Shown here piece after piece: positions 7,251 through 32,108 of a stretch of DNA of 64,000 nucleotides. A model generated the notes under the pieces. The model searched no databases and was not told the origin of the DNA. It was given only the letters and a program-made list of their open reading frames with translations. The stretch comes from a virus. Position 1 is the stretch's first letter, and every line of letters starts with the position of its first letter. The translations under genes were made by a program, and so were the position numbers. Where the stretch lies: IMG/VR virus record IMGVR_UViG_3300037461_000951, positions 32,001-96,000 of that record; one strand, written 5' to 3'.

Positions 7251-8158
7251 TCAGCCGCCTCAAAAGCCGTTAACGGTTCAGTATTCTCTACGATGGGTTG
7301 TTTGAGAATTTCCAATTGTTTGATAGCGGCTTCACCCGTCCAACATTTCCATTCTTGTTCGGTCATGTAGTCAATAAAATCTTTCACCGTTTCCAATTTG
7401 TCCAATTCCACCAATACAAAATTTTGAGCTTTAAGATTTTGTGTGAGCTTGCGACGATGCCCTTTACTGGGGGTTGCTACCGTCACAATTTTACCGTTCA
7501 TTTCCTTACGAACGACTTTCTTCTCACTGTTGGGATCATCTTTAGCGACAACCTTCTCAATCTCAACCCGTAACTTTTCAACCGTCCAGTTTTTAGCAAC
7601 GGCATGTTTAGCCAATTCTGTTTGCTTCCCTTCTTCAGTAACCGCTAACAAAGCCGTGGCTTTTGAACGATCTAAAGCACCCGTTTGAATCAATGCCGTT
7701 ACATCTTTATTCAAGCGAGTTAAACGAACCACATTGGCAATGTAACTACGAGATTTACCTAACCGCTTCGCTACTTGATCTTGAGTTAAGGAAAAATGAT
7801 CCATCAATTGATTGAGTGCAATGGCTTCTTCCATTGGATTTAAATCTTGACGTTGCAAATTTTCCGTAATAGCGGCTTCTTGCGAAGCTTCATCTGTCAT
7901 TTCCTTGACTATGGCACGGATTTTATCTTTTCCTAAAATTTCTTTTGTTGCTCTCCATCGCCGTTCACCCGCAATCAATTCATACTCACAACCACTGGGT
8001 AAATCGGAAGCTTTTCTCACAGTAATGGGTTGAATCAACCCTTGATTTTCAATACTTTCAGCCAGTTCTTCTAGTTCTTTAACTTTGAATTCTTTACGTG
8101 GTTGATAACGATTTGGGGCAATCTTATCGCACGGCAAGTAAACCAATTGTTCAGTCAT
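7247..8158 (-). CDS. parB: ParB/Spo0J partition protein
   Basis: YQPRKEF, GLIQPI, GERRWRA (CTP-binding motif), ENLQRQDLNPMEEA, HTH TQDQVAKRLGKSRSYIAN. Confidence 0.92.
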   Translation of the reverse strand: MTEQLVYLPCDKIAPNRYQPRKEFKVKELEELAESIENQGLIQPITVRKASDLPSGCEYELIAGERRWRATKEILGKDKIRAIVKEMTDEASQEAAITENLQRQDLNPMEEAIALNQLMDHFSLTQDQVAKRLGKSRSYIANVVRLTRLNKDVTALIQTGALDRSKATALLAVTEEGKQTELAKHAVAKNWTVEKLRVEIEKVVAKDDPNSEKKVVRKEMNGKIVTVATPSKGHRRKLTQNLKAQNFVLVELDKLETVKDFIDYMTEQEWKCWTGEAAIKQLEILKQPIVENTEPLTAFEAAE

Positions 8159-8208
8159 TTTAAAGTACTCTTGTGTGGGACGTTATGGTAAAAGTATAGT
8201 TCGTGAAT

Positions 8209-8242
8209 TATTTTACATGAAACAAGTGTTTCACGTCAAGTT
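8209..8242. promoter_or_regulatory. Two degenerate parS-like 16-mers overlapping the putative parB promoter
   Basis: TATTTTACATGAAACA (13/16) and TGTTTCACGTCAAGTT (12/16) versus canonical TGTTTCACGTGAAACA. A minus-strand TTGACG-18 nt-TAAAAT overlaps them. Confidence 0.5.
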
Positions 8243-8678
8243 TTATTTAACCCACAATACAAAATACTCTTCTAATACCCAACGTGGATAAGCTCTTGTT
8301 GGAAAACGATTCGCACCTAAATGATGAATGACTTTAATTCTAATTCTTTCAGTATGACATCTAGTGAGTATTTCACGTTCTGCTTGCACTAATAAATTTT
8401 TGGTAATGGGATACCGATGATAATTAACGAAATGTTGTATGGTTAAATACTCTTCCTCACTCATAAAAGTGAACCTTCTAAATTTTCTTTAAATTTAAAT
8501 TCCAATGAAGAATGAACGGTACTGATTAAATCAGAAGCTGAAATTAATGCCGCTTTATCGTTTTCATCAAAGTGTGGACTTGGAAGAATCCATTCATCTA
8601 AAATCTGCAACATTAACTGAAGTTGATGTTTCGTGGATAAAAATGACTCTAATTCATTTTTCATAATAAGCCCATGAA

Positions 8679-8701
8679 ATAGCCCCCAAAAAGGGGGCTA
8701 T
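8679..8701 (-). terminator. Intrinsic terminator hairpin
   Basis: ATAGCCCC-CAAAAAG-GGGGCTAT inverted repeat downstream of 8716..9369. Confidence 0.65.
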
Positions 8702-8715
8702 TTATATTTACAAAC

Positions 8716-9369
8716 TTATGCGGTCGTCAATACCACAGTACCTGCATTCGAAACAGTTCCCATTTGAATAGCGACTTCAAATGCACGAACCGTATTCAGA
8801 TGCACGACTTGAGCACTAGAGCGCTGCATAACAACACCGCGCTCTTCCAACTTCACCATTAATTGATCCAATGAAGTACTCATATCTTCGCACATGATTT
8901 CACGCACGGCATTGGCGGCAATTGGACCTTTAGGTTCTTTGGGCGCTTTGGGTGGCTTGGGTTCAGAACTGGGCTTACGTCCCCGCTTTTTGGGTTCAGG
9001 CTTTTCTTCAGTTTCTTCCTCACCCTCTTCAGCTTCTTCAGTTTCTTCCTCACCTTCTTCAACTTCTATTTCAGCCTTTTTAACCGCTTTAGGCGGCTTA
9101 TGAGCCTTAGCCTTAACCTTTTTAACTTCAGACTTCTTGGTTTCAACAGACCCTGGAATATCCGTAAACTCCACTTCGCTTTCACTGTCCGTCAACATAT
9201 CGGCGGTTTTATTGTACCAATCTTGCAATTCTGTAGGAAGATCATTCCATCCCGATTCGGGCAAGTTTTGAATTTGAAAAGCGACGCGCTGCAAAAATAC
9301 ATCACGAGCTTCATCTTCTTCTTGAACGATTTCAAGAACTTCCGTTACATATTCAAATGCATTAGTCAT
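8716..9369 (-). CDS. Hypothetical protein with acidic and Lys/Pro-rich low-complexity linker (possibly DNA-binding)
   Basis: E-rich tandem duplication, KKRGRKP AT-hook-like segment, downstream terminator. Confidence 0.5.
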   Translation of the reverse strand: MTNAFEYVTEVLEIVQEEDEARDVFLQRVAFQIQNLPESGWNDLPTELQDWYNKTADMLTDSESEVEFTDIPGSVETKKSEVKKVKAKAHKPPKAVKKAEIEVEEGEEETEEAEEGEEETEEKPEPKKRGRKPSSEPKPPKAPKEPKGPIAANAVREIMCEDMSTSLDQLMVKLEERGVVMQRSSAQVVHLNTVRAFEVAIQMGTVSNAGTVVLTTA

Positions 9370-9452
9370 TGTAGGACACCTTAATTAACGTCAATAAAAT
9401 TGTTGGGGTTGATAATTCAACCCATGTAAACATACCTGACTTCAACTCTAGT

Positions 9453-9998
9453 TTAGCACTCTATCCCCAAATGGTCAAGCGTTGTTCGAATTAAATTGAT
9501 GTTTTGTGGATTCTTGTTTAACAATCTACACAACATCACATTGCATAACTCAGGATTTTCATGAAAACTGTTTTGCAATAATATAACTAGATCATCCGGT
9601 GCATTCAGCAATATATGCAAAACTTGCCGAACATCGGGCGGGGCTTTTTGCAAAAGCAGTTGCACAATCCCATCATTATCTAAATCCGCAATTAAAGAAT
9701 CTAATTGCACATTTTGTTGTTCACTATTTTCAGTGGTATCAATAAACCGCTCTTTAGTAGCTTTATTGGCTAACGTAATAAAATGATTAGACCAACTGGT
9801 TTTAAACAGTGACATCAAATGTTTTTCATTCTCAATTTGACATTGACGCTTTTGCAATCTTCTAATAGTTCGAATGAATTGCAGTTGGGCCTCTGCTAAT
9901 GCATCTTCCCAATCCATATAAGATTGTAATTTCCAATAATGTTTTTTGAGGTGGTTAATCACATAAGGACGTACAATTTCAAAACTATACTCTTTCAC
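9453..9998 (-). CDS. Putative sigma-factor-like transcription regulator
   Basis: YMDWEDALAEAQLQF...SLFKTSWSNHF resembles sigma region 2; weak. Confidence 0.4.
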   Translation of the reverse strand: MKEYSFEIVRPYVINHLKKHYWKLQSYMDWEDALAEAQLQFIRTIRRLQKRQCQIENEKHLMSLFKTSWSNHFITLANKATKERFIDTTENSEQQNVQLDSLIADLDNDGIVQLLLQKAPPDVRQVLHILLNAPDDLVILLQNSFHENPELCNVMLCRLLNKNPQNINLIRTTLDHLGIEC

Positions 9999-19689: not shown

Positions 19690-20173
19690 TTGGAGATTTT
19701 TGACCATTTTTGAAGAGTTTTTGTGGGTTTCCCAAGTGTTTATTCAAGTCGTAACACTCCCAAGTGTTACGACGACTTGAAGTTTCAAAAAACGAAATTA
19801 TTAAAAATCCATCATCAACAGTCTGTCCATCGGACAGACAGCTAATGAGGAGTCTGAACGAACACAATAACTCCCTTCTTCGAAGGTCGTATTGGTTCGT
19901 CCCGACCTCTGATTCTCATTAGCTGGCTACACTCTTTTGGTTGGACTTCGATATGGAAACTGATACTGCATACTGTGAAAAACATCTTATAAAAATCCCA
20001 TGTTTCGCATTTTTTAATATTGCGCCGCAACCCACTCATGTAATCCGTCTCACAACCCACCAAATAGTCGATTGTAGCCATTTAAATGTTTCGGGAATGA
20101 CAACGTAGCGGGTCGTTATCAAAGTGGCTAAAATTGCCATTTTGGTGGCTTCCCTTCGATGTCGAAGTTTCGG

Positions 20174-20202
20174 TTGACAACGGGAGTGGTGGCGAGTATA
20201 GT
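20174..20202 (+). promoter_or_regulatory. Near-consensus sigma70 promoter
   Basis: TTGACA (20174-79), 17 nt, TATAGT (20197-202). Confidence 0.75.
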
Positions 20203-20207
20203 GAGGA

Positions 20208-20280
20208 TGCTGTGGGGTAGTATTGCTTCACATCATGCTTAATTCTCCGTAAAGCCCGAATTGCAAGATTCGGGTTTTTT
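20208..20280 (+). ncRNA. Putative ~70-nt small RNA
   Basis: Lies between the promoter above and terminator GCCCGAAT-TGCAAG-ATTCGGGT-TTTTT. It has a 5' hairpin UGUGGGGUAG/UUGCUUCACA and an unpaired UCAUGCUUAAUUCUCCGU; no credible ORF. Confidence 0.6.
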
Positions 20281-20404
20281 AATCTTGTTTAAAATGTTTC
20301 CATACATTTTTCCAAAAAAGATCTAAAGAGTTACAATGCGTCCAATAATCATCTTCGTAGCTCACATTCCAAAAAACCCAAAGCCAGTGAATGTAAAATT
20401 TCAT
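20279..20404 (-). CDS. 41-aa Trp-rich peptide
   Basis: Below the ORF-track cutoff: MKFYIHWLWVFWNVSYEDDYWTHCNSLDLFWKNVWKHFKQD, with GGAGAG RBS; ends at the bidirectional terminator. Confidence 0.45.
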   Translation of the reverse strand: MKFYIHWLWVFWNVSYEDDYWTHCNSLDLFWKNVWKHFKQD

Positions 20405-20421
20405 AGTAAACTCTCCAACGG

Positions 20422-20459
20422 TTACTGGATAGTATAAATATATTTATACTATCCAGTAA
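20422..20459. repeat. Perfect 38-bp palindrome
   Basis: TTACTGGATAGTATAAATA|TATTTATACTATCCAGTAA. Confidence 0.9.
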
Positions 20460-20463
20460 AATT

Positions 20464-21045
20464 TTAAAATCTGGTTGTTAAAATATCTATCAACCAGTAT
20501 TTATCGATCTTACTGAGATCGATATAATGTATGGACTCTTTTAAAAAATCTTGTATGTTTTTGGGTTGAATACGGTAATATGCAACACGTGTTTCATCAT
20601 TACCCCCTTCTTTGGCAGCTTTTAAGAACTTTAAACGAATCCAGCGTTGAACAGTTCGGGGGTCTACATTTAAGATGTGTGCTAATCCCTCTGCGGTATA
20701 GCCCACAATCGTTTCATCGCGTTCCACTTTCATTCGCCAACCATCTCGAAAACGGAACCCATCAACGGCATCGGGTGTTCGACGGTATCCAGCTCTACGA
20801 AGAGCACGGCTGGCTTCTTCATGCGTTAGGTGGGGCATTTTACGTAGTAAAATAATTTCTGGTGCCGTCCATCGACGGACGGGGTTTTTATTGGAGATGG
20901 GTTTTAGACCCAGTTGTCTAGCTCTTTTTGTTAGTTTATCAGTTCTGCATTGCCAAATTTGGGCTTGTGTCGAGATGGCACCCAAGATATAAGGTGGGGT
21001 ATACAATTCCACAATGCGGGCATCCATCTCGGGAGTAAAATTCAT
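20464..21045 (-). CDS. Multi-HTH DNA-binding protein (MerR/Xis-like C-terminal HTH)
   Basis: YTAEGLAHILNVDPRTVQRWIRLKFLKA; WTAPE Myb-like segment. Start moved to MNFTPE because the upstream MFHVKQ is the translation of a parS-like site. Confidence 0.65.
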   Translation of the reverse strand: MNFTPEMDARIVELYTPPYILGAISTQAQIWQCRTDKLTKRARQLGLKPISNKNPVRRWTAPEIILLRKMPHLTHEEASRALRRAGYRRTPDAVDGFRFRDGWRMKVERDETIVGYTAEGLAHILNVDPRTVQRWIRLKFLKAAKEGGNDETRVAYYRIQPKNIQDFLKESIHYIDLSKIDKYWLIDILTTRF

Positions 21046-21061
21046 GGCGTGTTTCCAAGTT

Positions 21062-21077
21062 TGTTTGACATGAAACA
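21062..21077. promoter_or_regulatory. parS-like site
   Basis: TGTTTGACATGAAACA, 14/16 match to TGTTTCACGTGAAACA. Confidence 0.55.
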
Positions 21078-22874
21078 TCATTCGTGTTCCGTTAAATGGA
21101 CTCTTATTAAATTTCTGGCACTAGCGATAATCTTTTTAACGTTTTTCTCACCGATTACTCGTTGAATTTTATCGGGATTACGAATAACATCTTGCCATGT
21201 GGTGATTCCCATGGCGGCTAGTTTTTTAGCTCTGACACCACCAATGCCCGGAAGTTGGACTAAAGCACACAATTCGGCACTCACTCCATATCTTAAACGA
21301 ATGGGAAGTATTTTGAGCATGTCGGGAATGCCCATCTTTGCAATGCCCATAATCCATGAGATCGCACCGACAATTCTTTCAGCGTCACTTTGTAAAGGTC
21401 GGGATTGCGGAGTTGCTTTATCTCCGCATAATAAATCATGAACATCTCGACTGAGCGTGGATTGTTTTAAATACGGTCCATTTCTCCACACTTGACGAAG
21501 CGCATTGAAATATGTTTGGACGGTCGCTTCTTCACTGCGGGGAATATACGGGAGTTGCATGGAAGGTGCTGATAATCCATACGCGATGCAAAGATCGTTC
21601 TTCCATAAATTTTGGCGTTCAATATGCGAGAAACATTGCCACCAGTGGTGGACATCTTCGGGATGAAAATATAAAGTGGCGGCAACGGTTCCCAAAGCGG
21701 TAATGCTAAAGGTATTGTCGGGATTGATGACAATGGCTTTCCAGTTTTGGAGTGCGTTTAACACCTCATCAATGTGTTGCTTTTCCAGTGGACTTTGGAT
21801 ACTGGCTAAGGTACGGTGATACCATGTGTACATCGTATCATAATCTTTGATGACTTTATTTTTGATCTCCGCACACAAATGAAAAGCCAGTGCATACGTA
21901 TCCAATAAGGTGGAGGTGACATTGCGGGGATGGGCAACTTTTTCCTTCCATTCGGGAATATTGTCGCAAATTAAGAACACATTGCCATAAGGTGCTTTTC
22001 CAAATCTTCCAGCACGACCGGCTTCTTGAACAATGTCTAGTTCATCCACGGGTTGAATACCTCGTGCAACGCCTACTATAATTGCGTTCTGCGCAGAAGT
22101 GTTACATCCCCATGCGAGGGCTGAGGTGCTAATTAATGCGGCGATGCGATCATTATTTTCTGATTCAAATCTTTTTAATAAGTCATGACGAGTTTCAGTA
22201 TCTAAATCGGCATTATAAAATTCACAAGCAATACCTAAATCTTTTAAAATAGCATCAATTCTTCGTCCCGTGTTTTTATCGTGAACAAATACGAGTGTAG
22301 ATTCATTTTGATGCTCTTGCACAATTTCGATGGCTTTACGAATTTTATCATCTTGATTTTCCCAATATGAACCGAAGGCGTTATGGGGAATAAAATTCCA
22401 GCGAAGTTCAGTAGGTCGCCATGTGGAGTTAATAATTTCCGAAGGTTTTTTATTGAGGGTGGTGAGCCATTGTGCAAATTCTTCACAATTGGGCATGGTG
22501 GCGGACATGAACCACACTTTAGCTTGTGGTGCTATCTCACAAAAACGCATGATGGATGCTTCAATGACATGTCCTCGACCTTCCATGGTCACTCCGTGTG
22601 CTTCATCTACCACGAGTAATTGAACATGTTTGACCCATTGATAGTGTTCACTGTAATGATTACGAGTCACACTATCTAATAATTCCGCAGTCATGATGAG
22701 GATATCAGCCGTTTCCGCTTCCTTCATCATTTCCAAACGGATTTTTTGACTGGTCAGTGTATCTCCAGTCAGTTGTAAAATCTTTTTATCTGGAAAAAGC
22801 TTACTCCAATCTTCGTATTTTTCATTGGAGAGTGCTTTAAGCGGGGCTGAGAAAATAACCTTTGCCATAATCAT
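21078..22874 (-). CDS. Ski2/Hel308-like SF2 helicase, C-terminal part (motifs Ia-VI, winged helix, HhH); lacks Walker A
   Basis: APLKALSNEK, TGD, VVDEAH, MSAT, STSALAWGCN, QEAGRAGR, LVQLPGIGGVRAKKL. Confidence 0.9.
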   Translation of the reverse strand: MIMAKVIFSAPLKALSNEKYEDWSKLFPDKKILQLTGDTLTSQKIRLEMMKEAETADILIMTAELLDSVTRNHYSEHYQWVKHVQLLVVDEAHGVTMEGRGHVIEASIMRFCEIAPQAKVWFMSATMPNCEEFAQWLTTLNKKPSEIINSTWRPTELRWNFIPHNAFGSYWENQDDKIRKAIEIVQEHQNESTLVFVHDKNTGRRIDAILKDLGIACEFYNADLDTETRHDLLKRFESENNDRIAALISTSALAWGCNTSAQNAIIVGVARGIQPVDELDIVQEAGRAGRFGKAPYGNVFLICDNIPEWKEKVAHPRNVTSTLLDTYALAFHLCAEIKNKVIKDYDTMYTWYHRTLASIQSPLEKQHIDEVLNALQNWKAIVINPDNTFSITALGTVAATLYFHPEDVHHWWQCFSHIERQNLWKNDLCIAYGLSAPSMQLPYIPRSEEATVQTYFNALRQVWRNGPYLKQSTLSRDVHDLLCGDKATPQSRPLQSDAERIVGAISWIMGIAKMGIPDMLKILPIRLRYGVSAELCALVQLPGIGGVRAKKLAAMGITTWQDVIRNPDKIQRVIGEKNVKKIIASARNLIRVHLTEHE

Positions 22875-23785
22875 TCACCTTTTTTGTCGATGTAGTACAT
22901 ATTGTTGATGATTTCTTTCAGCTCAAGATTTAAATCTTTTTTCCATTCTATTTGCATGTGACAACTTATGCAAAGAGTTACTAAGTTTTGTGGTTGATTT
23001 AAAACGTTTAAATCTTCACCACTTCGTATTGGAATTAAGTGGTGAACGTGTAAAATTTTTTCTGATTCTTGACACAGTAAACACTGATTGTTATCTCTTT
23101 CTTTTATTTCTTTACTTAATTCAGTCCAAAAAATACCTCTACTTCTTTTTATACTGTCATTCCATCGATAGTGTTCTTCTTTATGTTTTATCCAAGGTAA
23201 TTTTGTAAGATCGTTTCCGTAATTATTTTTGAGCGTTTGTAACGCTTTTTCAGATCTATTTTTTATAAAGATAGGATCTGCATATTTTGCAGACATTATT
23301 GCTGTGTATTTCTCTTTTACTTTTTGATCATGCATTGGATTATTTTCTCCAGTGCGACGTTCATAGTTACCACCAGGTAATCGTTGTGCTTCGTGTCCTT
23401 TTTCAAGGAATTCTTTAAAAAGTTCTGGATTTTTTTCCCACCGTTTTTTAGTTTGTAAGCCACCTAATCTACCGCAAGCAGCCATTTTAGCACGATGCTC
23501 GTCAGTATCTGGCCCCCAAGTAGGTCTGTTTTCTCTACGAGTTTGTACTGCTTTAGCTTTTAATTCTGGTACTTGACTAGCATTGGTAATATTCTCACCA
23601 TATTTACGTTGGAAAGTTAATTTACTCTTTTCAGTAGCTTGAGATCTATCTCGATTTCTTTGAAATTGTTTTAATTTCTCAGTACGCATGTGGTGTCCTC
23701 TTGCGTAAAGAGCATTTGGTTTTTTCACCAGTTGTAAACAACCACAGTGACAAAACGGAATCGATTTTCGAATGACCTTTGCCAT
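22871..23785 (-). CDS. Free-standing HNH homing endonuclease
   Basis: N-terminal CHCGC, KYG-type repeats, C-terminal RDNNQCLLC...HVHHLIP...NLVTLCISCH. Confidence 0.85.
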   Translation of the reverse strand: MAKVIRKSIPFCHCGCLQLVKKPNALYARGHHMRTEKLKQFQRNRDRSQATEKSKLTFQRKYGENITNASQVPELKAKAVQTRRENRPTWGPDTDEHRAKMAACGRLGGLQTKKRWEKNPELFKEFLEKGHEAQRLPGGNYERRTGENNPMHDQKVKEKYTAIMSAKYADPIFIKNRSEKALQTLKNNYGNDLTKLPWIKHKEEHYRWNDSIKRSRGIFWTELSKEIKERDNNQCLLCQESEKILHVHHLIPIRSGEDLNVLNQPQNLVTLCISCHMQIEWKKDLNLELKEIINNMYYIDKKGE

Positions 23786-24712
23786 GTTACGTTTCCATGT
23801 GGGTTTTCCAGTTTAACCACCAGGATATGGTGTGTGGTGATTAGTAAAATCTAAATATTGGTAGATATTTAACCATATTTTTTGAATATTTGTTGAACCG
23901 TCATATTGGTATGGAAAATAGATTGCTTGATCATCTTTTGCAATGAATCGGGGACACGAAGGACTACCAAAACCATCGTCAAATTCTTGATGAAGAATTG
24001 GATGGTTGTTGTTAATGATTTCCGCGTTTATTGGATCATACCATCCGGGCGCTTCATTCTTTTCAACAGCTTGAAAAATTATTACACCTGATGAAAAATC
24101 AAAGTCTAGTTCAGTAAGCCAGTCATAAATAGTAGCCATGTATTAATCCTCATCATCTTCTTCAAATTGATCTTCTTCAAATTGATCTGCTGCCCAAATA
24201 TCTAACACTTCGTTGTTAAAAAATTCAGACATACATTCATATACTCCTGGGATGCTCATAAAACTGTAGTGATCATCTGTTAGATATTTATATACAAGAT
24301 CAGTTAAAATTTCATCAAACTCTTCATTTGTCATTTCACTGTAGTCTACACTATCAGTATCAATGGGTAACATCTGTATGTATTCCAGTGGTTGTGGGTT
24401 GCTAAAGCATGGTCAGTTTAACATATATCAAAGTTATGGTCAAATCGTTTTATTCAGGTATGTGAATATAATAGCGATGACATATTATAGGTTCTGTAAT
24501 GAAAAAGTTTATGTTGATTTTGTTATATATCATGATTGTTTGTGTTCTTATATATGGGGCATATTGGTTGAATAAGAATGGATCTTATTTTTTATGGTAT
24601 GAGGATATGGTAAAAGACACCATTCGTGGAATGGTAAAAGCAGAGGCATTGAAAAATTGATATGTGTTTTATTCAGGTATATCATAGCTCAATCCATCGT
24701 TGGAGTTATCGT

Positions 24713-25484
24713 GATGAAGATACTACATGAGTTGTTAGCGACTGAAAAGAACTTCACTTCGCAAGTGAACAAGTTGCAGTTGGAGACTTTGCAAAAGTTT
24801 GATAAAGATCATTATTTTAAGGGCTATATCAAAACTTTAAAAATGCTTAAAGATGCTCCGAATAACGAAGAATTGGAGCTTGCGGGGAGTGAAAAGAAAG
24901 AATTAGTAACGACGGTTAAGCAGACGTTAGAATATTTGCTGACGTTCTGGATCAATGCTGAAGATTTGCAAGCTACGAAGAATGTGACGAATCAACGAGC
25001 CGTGGCAAATGTGGAGATCAATGGAAAGACTTTGTTGACAAATCTTCCCGTGGATGAGTTGATGGGTTTGGAATCACGGTTGTTAGATTTGCGGAAAGTT
25101 TTTGAAAAAATGCCAACTTTAGATGCGTCAAAGACCTGGATTCCGTCCTCGGTCAGTGATGGGGCTTGGGAGGCGGCAACAGTCGATGTCACAGTTAAAA
25201 CTGAAAAGGTTTTGACTCCAGTAGTGTTGTATGAAGCCACCAAGGAACACCCGGCGCAGGTGAAAGAAGTTTCTAAAGATGAAGTGGTGGGAACGTTTAC
25301 CACGAAACATTTTTCAGGCGCTTCAACCTCGTTGCAAAAAGCGCAGTGTTTAGAGCGTTTGGACGTGTTGTTGGTGGAAATTAAAAGAGCTAGAATGCGG
25401 GCGAATACGGTAGCGATTCAATCCGTTTCTGTGGGTCAGTCGATTGTGGATTTTATTACGTCCGGCACGATAGCTCAGGTATAA
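24713..25484 (+). CDS. Conserved ~256-aa protein of unknown function (recalled as a DUF7873-like family; unverified)
   Basis: LHELLATEK, TKNVTNQRAVANV, LPVDELMGLE, PTLD, EATKEHPAQV, FSGA, RARMRAN. I recall this pattern from bacterial and phage hypothetical proteins. Likely start MKILHE. Confidence 0.65.
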
Positions 25485-25489
25485 TTTGA

Positions 25490-25940
25490 ATGTAGTGCAG
25501 TGTTATCGTTGTAGTGAGTGTTGAGCATCCACCACGGTATGGGTGGCGAAGGCTACATACTTGAAAGTTCGAATCTTTCCTCGCTCACTGAATGTTTGAA
25601 GCTTTCGAATATTCAGTGAGCGAGTGCCGGAATTGGTAGACGGGTGGAAACCGTGTTACGGAATGGATGTGTGTTGGTGGTTATCGTGTTTCACTACATG
25701 CGTTGTTTTAAAGATGTATGAAAGAATCTTGGGTTATTGACTGTGAAAGAGTTGGTTCGACTCCAACACTCCTCGCCCAATGATACTGGGAGTTGAGTAT
25801 CATTCGGGAGGAGTGCGTATGCTGGTTGAGTACATCACAAATGTCGATATTGAAATAACAGCAAGTGAATTTCATGCATGTGACCAATAAGATCACAATG
25901 GGCCGTCAATATTTGGCTATAATGTTGACGGCTTTCTTCT
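25490..25940 (+). ncRNA. Large structured RNA with two circularly permuted tRNA-like modules
   Basis: T-arms GAAAG-UUCGAAU-CUUUC (25563-79) and GUUGG-UUCGACU-CCAAC (25751-67), each followed by a long loop-closed stem and a D-arm-like hairpin. Nested closing helices; terminal hairpin with U-rich tail at 25902-25940. Confidence 0.75.
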
Positions 25941-26222
25941 ATTGACAGTTGATCCTGTATGCGCTATGTTATTCATAAATGTCATACACACTTGAAGATT
26001 AAATCATGACGAAAGATGAGTGGATTGCCAGGCGTCAAGAAAACTCTGAATTTACCTGGGATGAAATTTTAGCATCGGGTTATGATGCCATGCCTTGTTC
26101 TTGTCAATTGAAAGGTTGTTTAGGTTGGAAGTTGCTCAAAGTGCAAAATTCTTTTATTCCAGTCAAGAAAAAAGTGAGTTTGGTCAGTCAAACTCCACCA
26201 GAGGCGGCTTAGGAGATTTTCA

Positions 26223-26700
26223 ATGTTGGTCAGATGTAAAAAATGTGGATGGATACACATGGGGTTATCGATAGGATCAGCCGAAGAATGCATTCGTGAA
26301 TTTAATTCGATGTACGTGCAATTGACCAATGAGCAGCAAGCGGATTATTATAATTCTAATCCTGCACGATTAAAAGATTATCAACACTGTCATCGGTGTA
26401 ATGAAAATTACAAACAGATGGAAGTGATTGCTTTTAATGATGTAAGAGCTGGTAAAATTAGTGGACGAACTTTGCAATCGGTGTTATTACCTAATGAGTG
26501 ACTTAGTTTTGATGCAGTGCATAGAGTGTGGTTGGTTGCATGAAGCGATTTACCCATCATTGGATTTTAAGGATGAGCATAAATATTTACACTGCCATAA
26601 TTGTTATGGGGATTATTTAAATTTTGAACCCGTAAAAGATTTAAGTTTAGTCAATTTGAAGCGGTATAAAGCGGGTGTTAAGATTTTGGTAGATTATTAG
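26223..26700 (+). CDS. Two tandem paralogous Zn-finger small proteins (26223..26501 and ~26494..26700)
   Basis: Both carry CxxCGW.H ... Y.HCHxC...Y. Confidence 0.55.
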
Positions 26701-26718
26701 CTGTTGGTATGGTAGAGT

Positions 26719-26745
26719 AAAAACCCGGATTAAACCGGGTTTTTT
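26719..26745. terminator. Bidirectional terminator between convergent genes
   Basis: AAAAACCCGG-ATTAAA-CCGGGTTTTTT. Confidence 0.75.
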
Positions 26746-28191
26746 AATTATGTATGTTTTTCTTCTTTTGTCATTAAAAAGATAGCTTTTGGATCGGAGT
26801 ATTTTTCTTTTAATTTTAGATTTTTTTCAGGTGAGAGTGTTTTTGTATCAAAGTAAATTTTCTTATCAAGATCAAAGCATTCATTATATATGAAATGGTC
26901 TATCCAATTATTGTAGTCTGTTTCAGAGAAAATGTTAACGTTGATCCGTTTATCGTAACCTACACTGGGAGGTTGGTATATAATGCTTTTTGTTTTAGGT
27001 TTAACGTGATTTCTAGCAAAATATAAATTATTAATTCTTCTACTTAAACTGGATAGAATACCTCCACTTTTAACGAGTTTTTTGTCTAGCATTATTTTTG
27101 TTATTAATGTATAAAAATCAATGATTTCACCGTTATCAATTTTTGTAGTGAGTGTTTTTAATCTTTCAACAATAGAAAAATAAGGTTCTTGATATTTTTC
27201 AAGATCTGTTTTGGGTGGTACTATGGGTTGTTGTGGATCTTCTTTTTTAATGGGAGGTGTGATGGCATGTGTTTCGTTTTTTAATTCTGTGTTGTTAAGG
27301 ATTCTGGTTTTTAGGGGTGTTCTAAATGGAATTCCAGTAGCTTTGAGAGCTTGTTCAAATTGCTCTTGAACATTATTTCGTAATTGAATTTTGTGGGTAT
27401 TCCAGTACACTGTATCGTTGATTGCTACAAATTTTAGATATTGTAAGTAATGAACGACGTGGTCTAATTTGAAATAAAAATCTTCGTTAAAGTCTTGCAT
27501 GTGTCACCTTAATTTATTACAGTTGTTTTAAAATGTAAGAGAGTGCTTCAAACTCTGGGTTAAAGAGTTTGGTGGGAATCACTGCACTGCTGATGAGTAC
27601 AAAAATGATAATGCCAATGATAAGAGTAATACATCCAATTCTTTTCATTTCTGCATCTGTATTTGCTAGTTCTTTATTTTTGGTATGAGGAATTAACTTG
27701 ATAGCGATTAAGATAAAAATAAAGTCAAGAATTAAAATAGTAATTCCTTCAATATAAGCTTGTTTGATAAGAGCAGCCCATAAATATTCTGTAGTGACAT
27801 TGAGTTTTTGGGCTAGTGCTTGTAGCAATTCTAAAGTTTTGTCATTCATTTAAAGTTCTCCAGAAGTTATTCCAAGATTCATTGAATCTGCTGATAAGCA
27901 AAGTGCTTTGTATTGATCATGTTTTTCTTTAGCGATTTTAATTTTATTTAAGTCTCCTGTTTTTTCTGCATTACTGAGTTCTTTAGCGAGTTTGATTAAA
28001 ACTCGAAAATTAGTCACAATTCTAATCATTAAAGTTCTTAAGTAGGTGTTTAAATAGGTTTATATTTTTCTACTTTGTCCACATTACAATGTGGACAATA
28101 ATAATGAATACCTTCGTTGGTTTCGATAAAGTATCTCCATTGATGCTTTCCTGATAATTTACAAAAAAGAATTTTGATGTAGTTATACACA

Positions 28192-29040
28192 TTAATCTCC
28201 ATAAAGAATTTTGGCGATAGCAAGTTCTGCACAGATTGTTTTTCCTGAACTGGTTGCGGTGCCTAAAATTAAATTACAATCTTTATTCCAAACATTGGAA
28301 TGATATACTGTGGTTTGCACATGATTAAATTCTTTAAATGGGTAGCGAATAAAAGGCCACTGTTCGGTGGGAACACACACTTGTTCGGTGTCGATGTCCC
28401 AATTTTTGAAGTTAGAGTTTTTTGGAAAAGTGGTATGAGATTTAATAGCTAATGTTTCAATTTTACGTTCAATCTCGGGTGGTACTGCCGACATTTGGTA
28501 GTTTTGATCTTTAAATGGATTCTCTTTTAATGGATAATTTCTAAAAGCGTTTTCCATTTTATTGAAACCGCTTTTACTGCATTGTCCAAAGATCGAACAA
28601 CCATAAAAAACGGCTCCATCAGATTGACGTGTGCGTTTTACCGTGTGTACCCGATTCTGAACACATTTACAAAAGCGATTTTGTTGTTGCATCAAATCTA
28701 CGACCTTGTTCATGTGATTCACTCGGTCGGTTAAACGCTCTTGTACGGTAGTATCACCTTCTACTCGTAAAATTTTACTTTCTTGATAACAAATTTTACC
28801 GGCAAAGCGATCCCATAAAATGATACGAATAGCATCTTCTCCAACACTTCGAGTGAGTCCTTCTCGTTCTTCAACGGTCGTATAAATATGACATTCTAAT
28901 CCATGGACCGGGTAACGATGGCAAATAACCAATTCTGTGCCACGGGTGGGCGTACTGATATGGTAGTCGTTGGGTCCGAAATAATGGTCAGCCCAAGCAG
29001 TAAAATCTTGTTTGGTTAAAGTAACGAATTCTTTGCTCAT
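28192..29040 (-). CDS. N-terminal part of the split helicase: unknown domain, Zn-ribbon, Q motif and Walker A
   Basis: C-terminus FKEFNHVQ...NLILGTATSSGKTICAELAIAKILYGD*; CKC...VFYGCSIFGQC Zn-ribbon. Confidence 0.85.
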   Translation of the reverse strand: MSKEFVTLTKQDFTAWADHYFGPNDYHISTPTRGTELVICHRYPVHGLECHIYTTVEEREGLTRSVGEDAIRIILWDRFAGKICYQESKILRVEGDTTVQERLTDRVNHMNKVVDLMQQQNRFCKCVQNRVHTVKRTRQSDGAVFYGCSIFGQCSKSGFNKMENAFRNYPLKENPFKDQNYQMSAVPPEIERKIETLAIKSHTTFPKNSNFKNWDIDTEQVCVPTEQWPFIRYPFKEFNHVQTTVYHSNVWNKDCNLILGTATSSGKTICAELAIAKILYGD

Positions 29041-29105
29041 GGTATGTTCATGTGGTGGTGTGGGTAAATGCAGTATAGCATATATTAATATGATAGTGCA
29101 AGTGT

Positions 29106-29627
29106 TTACTCTTTATTAACAAAGAATTTTTTATAAGCGGACAAGATGGCTGCTTTGGCAGCGTAATCTACTGGATCTCCAGATTTAACGGGCATTAAAC
29201 TGAGACTCGCTTTAAAATAACGAACTAGATGTTGCCAAATTTCATCGTTGTCATTAATAAATATCCATCGTTTGGATGCAACGAAGATGTGGTTATTTTT
29301 TGGATCTTTAATGTTAAAAAATCCCATGAAGCGACAGTCAAAGGTTCGACAAACGGTGGGGACACGATCATGGATGGAACAACCTTGTGGAACTAAATAA
29401 GTACACTCTCCATTGGGTTTGTGTTTTAAATGATATCTGTTTTCTGATTTTGAAAATTTGGTTTTAAAGTTGAGTTTGATTTCATGAGGATAGAGTTGTG
29501 CGTTGACAAATCCAGTACAACACGCATGACATTCTCCACATGGAACAGCAATTCCTTTTTCTTGGCCTTCTCCAGTATCTTTTACCCATTGAGATACATA
29601 AACATTGACTTTAGTTAATTCTTTCAT
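29106..29627 (-). CDS. YkgJ-type CxxCxxCC Fe-S/Zn cluster protein
   Basis: CGECHACC...CTYL...CSIHDRVPTVCRTFDC. Confidence 0.8.
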   Translation of the reverse strand: MKELTKVNVYVSQWVKDTGEGQEKGIAVPCGECHACCTGFVNAQLYPHEIKLNFKTKFSKSENRYHLKHKPNGECTYLVPQGCSIHDRVPTVCRTFDCRFMGFFNIKDPKNNHIFVASKRWIFINDNDEIWQHLVRYFKASLSLMPVKSGDPVDYAAKAAILSAYKKFFVNKE

Positions 29628-31459
29628 GGCGATGATTCACAAAAAGGTTTTAAGAATAAAGCCCGGAGAGTATCCGGGCTTGGTGATTATTTCAGTTCCA
29701 GAATTAAATCTTCAGGTTGGATGACATAACCAAACTCGCTACGTTGTTCATATCGATGTTTTTTTACTGCGAAGTAATAAACACCTTGCGCATCATCCCC
29801 ATTGATGGCTGCACGAACCATGAGTTCATCTTCATCCAAAGTGGGATCATCTACATCGCGTTCCCAACACATCGTTTCAATGAGTTGACCTTTATTTTTT
29901 TTCAGCCAGTATAAATAATGAGCCTCTACACTGGTGGCTTTAGTGGGAAGTACAATAACATTAAGATCTTGTTCATATTGTTCAGGAAAAAAGTGTCGTT
30001 GATTGTCGTTCATGCCTGTAAAGAGACTGCTGATTTGGTGGAAGGTTTTAGCTCTTTGAGCTTTCGCTTACTACGGAAGGTGCGATTTCCCTTAGTGGTG
30101 GTGGTGATTAAATTGAATTGTTTGGGATTGAGCCATTTTTTTAAATCTTCAATTGAAAATTGGGCCAGTTCAATAAATTTTTCAACTCCAAGTTCTTGTA
30201 ATACTTTTTTATTGTCAGTCACGATGGTTTTTTCTGCGGGTGCTGTAATGAGCAATTCGAATTCTTTACCTGTTAAGTTTAAACTATCTTCTGGTAGATC
30301 TTTAATGATCGCTTCAATAATTTTTTTACAGCCGTCTTTAATTTTAGTTTGTTCCTTAATGATTTCGGAGCTACGACCGTATTGATCGATTTCAGACATG
30401 ATTGCGGGTTTGACTTGAACATTTTGCATGTTAATTCTCCAGTGATTAAAGCACAACCCGGTTTTTGGGTTGACGTATTATATAGTGTATGACATGGAAT
30501 GTCAAATGTCGCTCTTTAAAAAGTATTTGACATTTAAGTTCAGGTATAGTAACATATTGAAAACATTTAATTTATTCACCTTTGAGAGGCTTTTGTCATG
30601 TATCCTGCCACACACATTAGTATGCATTTTAATCAGTATTGGCGTTCAGGATTGATTGAAGTAAAACCGATTAGAGTTGTTGATTTTAAAGAACTAGCAT
30701 TATTATACGATTTAGAAGATTTTATAGAAGAAGTTGATTTACCATTACGAGCACAAAGAAATTCAGAATTTTTATTGGAAACAAGTTCATTAAAAGATGT
30801 TTTTTATTTTGCATTAATGACGGTGGTTCGACAACGAGGGGTAAATAGTAAAGATAGATGTTTTAAGAATCAAAAGTTTTTATCATTGCAGGAATTGAAA
30901 AGTAAGACGATTAGTGGACAGTTGGAAAAACGACATGTATTAGATTCATTGTATGATTTATTTATATTTGCATATCGACGATGTTCAGGTTATTTTAAAC
31001 AAGAATTGAGTTTTTTGGTGACGAATAAAGATCATTATTATTATTATCTGTGGTTGTTTAATCAAGTGTATGATCGAATTGTGTGTGGTAGGAAGCAGCT
31101 TCAAGGGGAGTTGCATACGAAGGCGTTATTGACTACTTTATTAAAGAAAGATGTTTTGCAAGCATTAAAAGAGTGATCAATAGTTACCCGGTGTCATTGC
31201 CGGGTTTATTTTTAAAATTATTTGTCCTATGGATTAAAATGTGCTATGGTGCTTTTTATATTATGAGGTATTGCTGTTGTGATTGATGGTAGATTACAAA
31301 AGAAGATCAGTGATGTGGTGTTAGCGTGTCGGACGTGTAAACATTTCCGAGATGATGATCTTGATTATTTTTATTGTGTTTTACAGAAAAAAGAATTTCC
31401 GGCGTTGTGTTCTGATTATGAATATGTTTTTAAATTACCAACATTTGGGGTGGATGTAG

Positions 31460-31900: not shown

Positions 31901-32108
31901 AAATCATTCATCCGAATACGCAATCCACATTGATCATGAACGATCAATGCCCGTTCATTGCCGAGATCGAAACTCACGCTGGATCGGATGAAGTGTTTTA
32001 TTGCGCAGTGCAGTTTGGTGAGATTGGCTATTCCGGCGCGTTGAATGTGATGCGTGAGGATTGGGAAGGGTTTAAGGCGCTCGTGGCGGAGATTGACCGG
32101 GAGTGGTC

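Follow-up and report, generated by a model that had tools for sequence, protein, structure and literature searches.

Can a helicase still act as an ATPase when its Walker A motif and its motif Ia are encoded by two genes lying several kilobases apart, and how could it have come to be cut there? This question is raised by a stretch of 64,000 nucleotides (nt) of the virus record IMGVR_UViG_3300037461_000951 of IMG/VR (positions 32,001 to 96,000 of that record), hereafter called the window, whose own numbering is used throughout. Two genes are found on its minus strand, one of 282 amino acids (aa) at 28192..29040 (the N-half) and one of 598 aa at 21078..22874 (the C-half), with 5317 bp between them. 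The first-pass annotation had described them as a helicase split between Walker A and motif Ia with its parts about 5.3 kb apart, and both open reading frames (ORFs) are indeed found in these positions. From comparison with intact and split relatives (designated by L and a number), we conclude that they represent a fissioned Hel308/Ski2-like helicase of superfamily 2 (SF2), whose two chains very likely assemble non-covalently and complete the RecA1 ATPase fold in trans.

The two halves of the helicase

The C-half comprises beta2, motifs Ia to VI, and the winged-helix, ratchet and helix-hairpin-helix (HhH) domains. It matches the Pfam families DEAD (PF00270; profile positions 47-166 only, E 1.8e-17), Helicase_C (PF00271; E 2.7e-12) and HHH_5 (residues 538-587), while the match of its residues 4-582 to PHROG family phrog_6819, "Holliday junction branch migration helicase", begins at profile position 62. 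As the Pfam DEAD and PHROG matches both begin inside their profiles, the C-half is devoid of the Q motif and Walker A. Motifs Ia to VI are all kept, and PLK, DE.H, SAT and Q..GR.GR are invariant in the C-half alignment. Translation probably starts at the second ATG (22868; MAKVIF...), which has AAGGTG 7 nt upstream; the L003 orthologue begins with MAKILY. The best sequence relatives in the PDB are ASCC3, SLH1, Brr2 and archaeal Hel308, and residues 440-845 of the fused homologue L008 match the Hel308 chains 9b15, 2zj2 and 2va8 (E 1e-34 to 1e-44).

The N-half is arranged, in order, as an N-terminal alpha/beta domain, a topoisomerase-type zinc (Zn) ribbon, a disordered linker, the Q motif, beta1, Walker A (GTATSSGKT) and helix alpha1. 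Its C-terminus reads FNHVQ...GTATSSGKTICAELAIAKILYGD, and the stop codon comes next. Residues 222-282 (28195..28377), with the Q motif, beta1, P-loop and alpha1, correspond to the N-termini of fused helicases: the last ~60 residues match the N-terminus of the intact homologue in LR756511.1 with 42% identity (E 9e-6 and 1.9e-9) and that of L013 with 50% identity (E 4e-15). The same part aligns structurally to the Ski2-like helicase SLH1 (Z 4.6, 21% identity). Taken together, the N-half and C-half thus carry the full motif set of a Hel308/Ski2-like SF2 helicase, and a start, a stop and a Shine-Dalgarno sequence are present for each of them.

The first-pass annotation treated the N-half as a piece of helicase, which holds for its tail but leaves out ~220 of the 282 residues, formed by the N-terminal domain (residues ~1-120) and the Zn ribbon (~121-160; together 28561..29040, minus strand). 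The ribbon was recognised from PF01396 annotated on N-half homologues, while the full N-half gave no family match in Pfam or PHROG. An AlphaFold2 (AF2) model of the isolated N-half has a mean predicted local distance difference test score (pLDDT) of 82, exceeding 90 in the N-terminal domain and Zn ribbon, with residues 180-210 disordered. No convincing fold was found for the N-terminal domain in a search with this model (Foldseek and VIA-align), the best hits (Z 6.1, 5.6 and 5.5) being common alpha/beta sandwiches. According to the alignment, fused relatives carry the same domain and Zn ribbon at their own N-termini. We also found residues ~1-155 of the N-half as free-standing ORFs of 144-185 aa in unrelated large phage contigs (L023-L030, e.g. 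L027:9950-10438), and this distribution indicates that the N-terminal domain is an independent module.

The position of the break

Fused homologues in related phages, whose search had been proposed as a check by the first-pass annotation, were found with lengths of 675-941 aa. One 675-aa ORF of phage LR756511.1 (595 kb) contains the matches to both the N-half tail and the C-half, separated by 24 nt. The fused homologues comprise L002 (675 aa) and the IMG/VR relatives L008, L009, L012, L015, L017 and L019 (852-941 aa), the latter six with N-terminal domain, Zn ribbon and whole helicase in one ORF. A scan of IMG/VR with the single N-half sequence gave no match, whereas an alignment-based scan did. 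In the source contig of 111,066 bp each half is present once and a fused paralogue is absent. The phage collection gave no match when searched by megablast with the whole region.

An alignment of five split and ten fused forms across the junction shows no residues missing and only ~2 extra loop residues in the window, bearing out the earlier claim that the joined halves read as a continuous sequence. We placed the break on an AF2 model of the fused L008 protein (mean pLDDT 86), in which the Q-motif helix spans residues 217-225, beta1 233-238, GKT 243-245, alpha1 244-258, a loop 259-261 and beta2 262-267, with motif Ia next. The window break maps to the loop 259-261; of RecA1, the Q motif, beta1, P-loop and alpha1 hence come from the N-half and all else from the C-half.

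Conservation and gene order

The split is not confined to the window. We identified 31 N-half clusters (270-297 aa, 26-94% identity, full-length coverage), all of which stop 10-20 residues after GKT, with no loss of the tail in any of the 31. In the family alignment, F235, N239 and Q242 of the Q motif and G260-T268 of Walker A are invariant. The C-half was also present in all nine distinct N-half contigs with enough flanking sequence. C-half relatives with at least 49% identity are either 592-600 aa long (split orthologues, 49-92%) or intein-cut into pieces of ~355 and ~375 aa, while those with at most 45% identity mostly measure 840-940 aa. A split-only clade of the window, L003, L005 and L006 was recovered in a maximum-likelihood tree of the C-half (support 96/100). 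Independent assemblies show an identical split (L003, L036, L033 and L035, and ~30 protein clusters of JGI, ENA and Logan origin).

Strong purifying selection acts on both halves. Measured against L003, whose DNA is ~80% identical to that of the window, the ratio of nonsynonymous to synonymous substitution rates (dN/dS) amounts to 0.09 over the N-half, 0.04 over the helicase tail alone and 0.04-0.06 over the C-half. Over both halves the ratio ranges from 0.04 to 0.11, so that this second check proposed for the locus gave no sign of relaxed selection; the L038-L040 pair was left out of the evidence as saturated (dS >4). These comparisons indicate that the split is an old, conserved and real gene fission.

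The order of the halves varies among relatives. In L003 and L036 the N-half is followed after 4.8 kb by the C-half, and in L044 after ~1 kb with two small ORFs and no endonuclease. L033 and L035 have the N-half and then an opposite-strand DUF7873 cassette, like the window, and the contig ends before any C-half. L005, L006, L038 and L040 have the reverse order, with both genes on one strand and the C-half 0.5-0.9 kb upstream of the N-half. Such variable and reversed arrangements argue against joining or splicing in cis. Just upstream of the C-half in reversed-order phages, we also noted an ORF of 118 aa (L040:6963-7319) with a topoisomerase-type Zn ribbon (CPKCG...GCSQFPKCKG), whose motif resembles the ribbon of the N-half.

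Proposed assembly of the halves and competing explanations

A heterodimeric helicase with its ATP site assembled in trans, as the first-pass annotation proposed, is well supported by the comparison, because the split is clade-wide, both halves are selected, their motifs are invariant, each occurs in a single copy, their order is permuted, and a homologous endonuclease lies at the same junction elsewhere; assembly and activity themselves are what we infer from this. In such an enzyme, two proteins made from separate genes would bind each other non-covalently, with the tail of the N-half completing the RecA1 fold, and only in the heterodimer would Walker A Lys267 come together with motif II (DEAH) and the arginines of motif VI. 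Both ATP binding (Lys267 and the Q motif) and hydrolysis (motifs II and VI) would then need the two chains.

Some points weigh against this proposal. In RecA-like architectures beta1 is expected inside the RecA1 sheet, in which case the halves must co-fold, which is demanding. The plus-strand genes between the halves imply that these are probably on different transcripts, and as far as can be seen their stoichiometry is uncontrolled. In the AF2 model of the isolated N-half the tail has a pLDDT of 59-83 and beta1 is unformed; a moderately confident tail of this kind would fit a segment that folds only on its partner, without being proof of it.

The halves might instead have diverged, the N-half acting through its N-terminal domain and Zn ribbon (e.g. 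as a DNA-binding factor) and the C-half working independently of ATP or otherwise changed, with no joint ATPase. The occurrence of the N-terminal domain alone as 144-185-aa proteins in other phages and the location of the halves in separate transcription units 5.3 kb apart would agree with this. We nevertheless consider it unlikely, as all split N-halves share an unchanged Q motif and Walker A (GTATSSGKT), the tail is kept in 31 of 31 clusters and has the lowest dN/dS (0.04), motifs Ia to VI are invariant in the C-halves, and both halves occur in every contig with enough flank. An assembly artefact or a recently broken, drifting pseudogene seems scarcely credible, since the same architecture recurs in independent assemblies from different samples, both halves are strongly selected, and N-half identities within the split clade fall as low as 37%. 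We accordingly rejected misassembly on the agreement of independent assemblies (a comparison of assemblies, not of reads) and pseudogene decay on the low dN/dS of both halves, the clade-wide conservation of the split and the selection on its parts together excluding the two.

The chains could also be rejoined covalently, either by an unrecognised minimal split intein through protein trans-splicing or by RNA trans-splicing. This lineage does use trans-splicing, as genuine split inteins interrupt the same helicase gene at LAWG|CNT in L006 and L007, and L007 has a full intein as well. At the window junction, however, alignment with fused homologues revealed no N- or C-terminal intein (Int-N or Int-C) blocks and no +1 Cys/Ser/Thr context. 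The termini align residue for residue with the fused forms, and ~2 extra residues offer no room for intein pieces; a split intein was hence rejected here. Searching 20000-30000 against Rfam gave no intron family at E up to 1 and no significant tRNA family. An intron was likewise set aside as improbable, as ORFs on both strands fill the interval and the gene order is reversed in four relatives. These results agree with the first inspection, which saw neither intein termini nor an intron core, and with a separate start, stop and ribosome-binding site for each half we regard covalent rejoining as very improbable.

The fission may, moreover, be used rather than merely tolerated. A separately expressed, limiting N-half could serve as an "ATPase key" that turns on the helicase body at a defined point of infection, and its N-terminal domain and Zn ribbon could also target that body. 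We put this forward as a speculative extension and hold it to be rather doubtful. If true, it would explain both the persistence of the split throughout the clade and how the two genes can be placed in separate transcription units or in the opposite order.

The interval between the halves

The interval of 5317 bp holds ~11-12 ORFs on both strands, in agreement with the roughly ten genes, an HNH gene among them, that were reported at first. Next to the C-half lies a free-standing HNH homing endonuclease gene (22871..23785, minus strand; Pfam HNH and DUF7487, PHROG HNH families), and its stop codon and the C-half's first ATG overlap (ATGA). The remaining cargo (23786..28191, both strands) consists of ~10 small or unknown ORFs according to the ORF list and family searches. 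It includes a DUF7873 gene with a non-coding stretch (24657-25940, plus strand; Pfam E 1.7e-68), three ORFs of which the last two are cysteine-rich (26006-26700, plus strand) and a membrane protein gene (27517-27849, minus strand). The DUF7873 gene and the ~450 nt of non-coding sequence 3' of it are kept on the opposite strand between the halves in L003, L033, L035 and L036 (84-87% aa identity); neither ARAGORN nor Rfam found a tRNA in this region (24657-25940). For one of the cysteine-rich proteins (CxxC...CxxC; 26461-26700, plus strand), a homologue, judged from translations, is located between the halves of the more distant L044 (392-598).

Compared with L003 the interval is a mosaic, in which 26750-28191 is missing from L003 and other blocks are replaced. 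The proposal that the split point became an insertion hotspot is weak on this comparison and only partly supported: ~50% of the inter-half region can be aligned to L003 against 49-62% of the flanks, and the whole early region is mosaic. An unusually strong hotspot at the junction was therefore discarded.

The HNH gene itself is absent from L003, the closest relative, which has an ORF of 68 aa in its place and is split nonetheless; therefore the present HNH copy did not cause the split in the window. The start of the HNH gene (ATGGCAAAGGTCATT) repeats that of the C-half (ATGGCAAAGGTTATT) with 14 of 15 nt identical, and both proteins begin with MAKVI. This direct repeat of 15 nt, ATGGCAAAGGT(C/T)ATT on the minus strand, is located at 23771-23785 and 22854-22868 and may be a footprint of endonuclease-cassette recombination. 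The present HNH gene seems to have re-invaded, at a later time, a locus that was split already, and not to have been the original cause.

Origin of the split

A second group of split helicases bears on how the cut arose. In L010/L022 and in L016 the helicase is cut in the same loop, and the sole gene between the halves is an endonuclease with overlapping stops and starts: a protein of 321 aa with DUF7487 and DUF559 matches in L010, and a NUMOD3 protein of 239 aa with an HNH-like C-terminal region in L016. Both L010 and L016 fall outside the window clade, beside the fused L012, and L010 is the sister of L012 (support 96/96). With a split form as sister to a fused one, the tree needs at least three state changes, i.e. 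at least two independent cuts at this loop. Residues 4-190 of the window HNH protein share 33% identity with the L010 endonuclease (E 2e-31), while the nuclease domains differ, which suggests that the two have in common a DNA-binding or target-recognition module aimed at the junction. A nucleotide-level reconstruction of the insertion from the fused L012 and the split L010 gave no result, as their DNA is too diverged.

The ancestor would have been a single polypeptide of ~850-940 aa with N-terminal domain, Zn ribbon, RecA1, RecA2, winged helix, ratchet and HhH. A free-standing homing endonuclease would have been inserted at the loop, as still seen in the L010/L016 clade. Later the junction would have turned into ordinary intergenic space, in which cargo was gained, lost and rearranged and which the present HNH gene re-invaded. 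For the window clade we infer this endonuclease origin by analogy, and the lack of the HNH gene in its closest relative L003 counts against it. Of the homing-endonuclease cause named in the first-pass annotation, the general idea is thus favoured by the homologous endonuclease at the same junction in an independent clade, but the attribution to the present HNH copy is not upheld.

Inteins and other breaks in the helicase family

Further breaks are found elsewhere in the same helicase. In L006 and L007 the site LAWG|CNT is interrupted by Int-N (~100 aa) and Int-C (~35 aa) pieces with a DUF559/MTES_1575-type endonuclease between them, while the C-half of the window carries an intein-free LAWGCNT. 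L040 has an intact C-half of 593 aa (7752-9533; ..LAWGCNTSAQN..), and in L006 (36-3082) the same lineage is split by the intein into a first C-part with Int-N, an endonuclease of 278 aa (ROS_MUCR/MTES_1575/DUF559 type), and Int-C with the second C-part. These two therefore represent a natural before/after pair for a "fractured gene". In L007 (9998-15156) the helicase is fused at the site where that of the window is split; it has a full-length intein after CTSEMTDS, the size of which suggests an embedded homing endonuclease, and the pieces of its split intein at LAWG|CNT are separated by an endonuclease gene of 305 aa. A third break is seen in L013 (9320-13311), where the ORF runs ~100 residues beyond motif VI (QMAGRAGR) and closes in a low-complexity stretch; next come an unknown ORF of 312 aa and then a separate ORF of 335 aa for the winged-helix, ratchet and HhH domains. 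The L013 break showed no intein signature.

Comparison with known split genes

The window locus has the features of genes in pieces, namely colinear uninterrupted orthologues, an endonuclease gene at the break (absent in L003, and accompanied by ~10 other ORFs in the window), and selection on both pieces. The closest parallel is the nrdA gene of Aeromonas phage Aeh1, which is split into NrdA-a and NrdA-b by the HNH endonuclease gene mobE and whose reassembly has been shown experimentally (PMC2988022; PMC2677866). In both cases a free-standing HNH-type endonuclease gene is located at the break of an essential DNA-metabolism gene, the cut lies inside the catalytic domain, and neither intein nor intron is present. 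Unlike in Aeh1, the gene here encodes an SF2 helicase, in which the P-loop is parted from the remainder of its own RecA domain. A whole clade, and not a single phage, has this split; ~11 genes and 5.3 kb separate the halves, relatives carry them in reversed order, and reassembly is proposed from comparison.

Division of phage replication genes into two cistrons, at or close to a gene for a homing endonuclease, is also known from the gp43A/B DNA polymerase in the Aeromonas phages 25 and 44RR, whose products co-purify and are active, and from T4 topoisomerase genes 39 and 60, split at mobA (PMC2988022). These genes belong to other enzyme families and their halves stay adjacent, whereas those of the window are 5.3 kb apart. 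In "fractured genes", a split intein and a free-standing endonuclease lie between the halves of a gene (Dassa et al. 2009, PMC2677866). The helicases of L006 and L007 follow this logic (half, endonuclease, half) at LAWG|CNT, but the window junction is without intein pieces and its product would hence not be religated.

With regard to known helicases, the phage family shares RecA1, RecA2, winged-helix, ratchet and HhH domains and all motifs with Hel308/Ski2-like enzymes (2P6R, 2VA8, 2ZJ2 and 9B15; Brr2, ASCC3 and SLH1). As solved in these entries the helicases are single chains, while the phage family adds the N-terminal domain and Zn ribbon and is encoded here by two genes. Naturally split reverse gyrases occur in N. 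equitans and M. kandleri, where the subunits associate into an active heterodimer (PMC4117796), and T4 UvsW/UvsW.1 is a helicase-type enzyme in two genes (PMC1524935). Their cuts fall between modules or within the topoisomerase portion, or remove a C-terminal tail, and none of them parts Walker A from motif Ia inside RecA1. Our literature search found no split Hel308-like phage helicase and no helicase with Walker A on a polypeptide separate from motifs Ia to VI. To our knowledge, natural fissions within the RecA/P-loop ATPase core are rare. Genes in pieces driven by endonucleases and "fractured genes" with split inteins are already established, and the helicase of the window is a further case; what is unusual here is the fission of the P-loop within its domain, the fixation throughout a clade, the dispersed or reversed halves and the recurrence at the same loop.

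Implications for the helicase family

Annotation pipelines will label the N-half as "hypothetical" and the C-half as a truncated helicase. One family contains a full natural series of forms: fused, freshly split by an endonuclease, anciently split with dispersed or reversed halves, cut at a second site by a split intein, and split without intein after motif VI. It allows covalent repair by a split intein to be compared side by side with non-covalent assembly of a fissioned RecA domain. The family hence represents a test bed for the fixation of gene fission, for fragment complementation of the RecA fold, and for the remodelling of phage replication genes by endonucleases.

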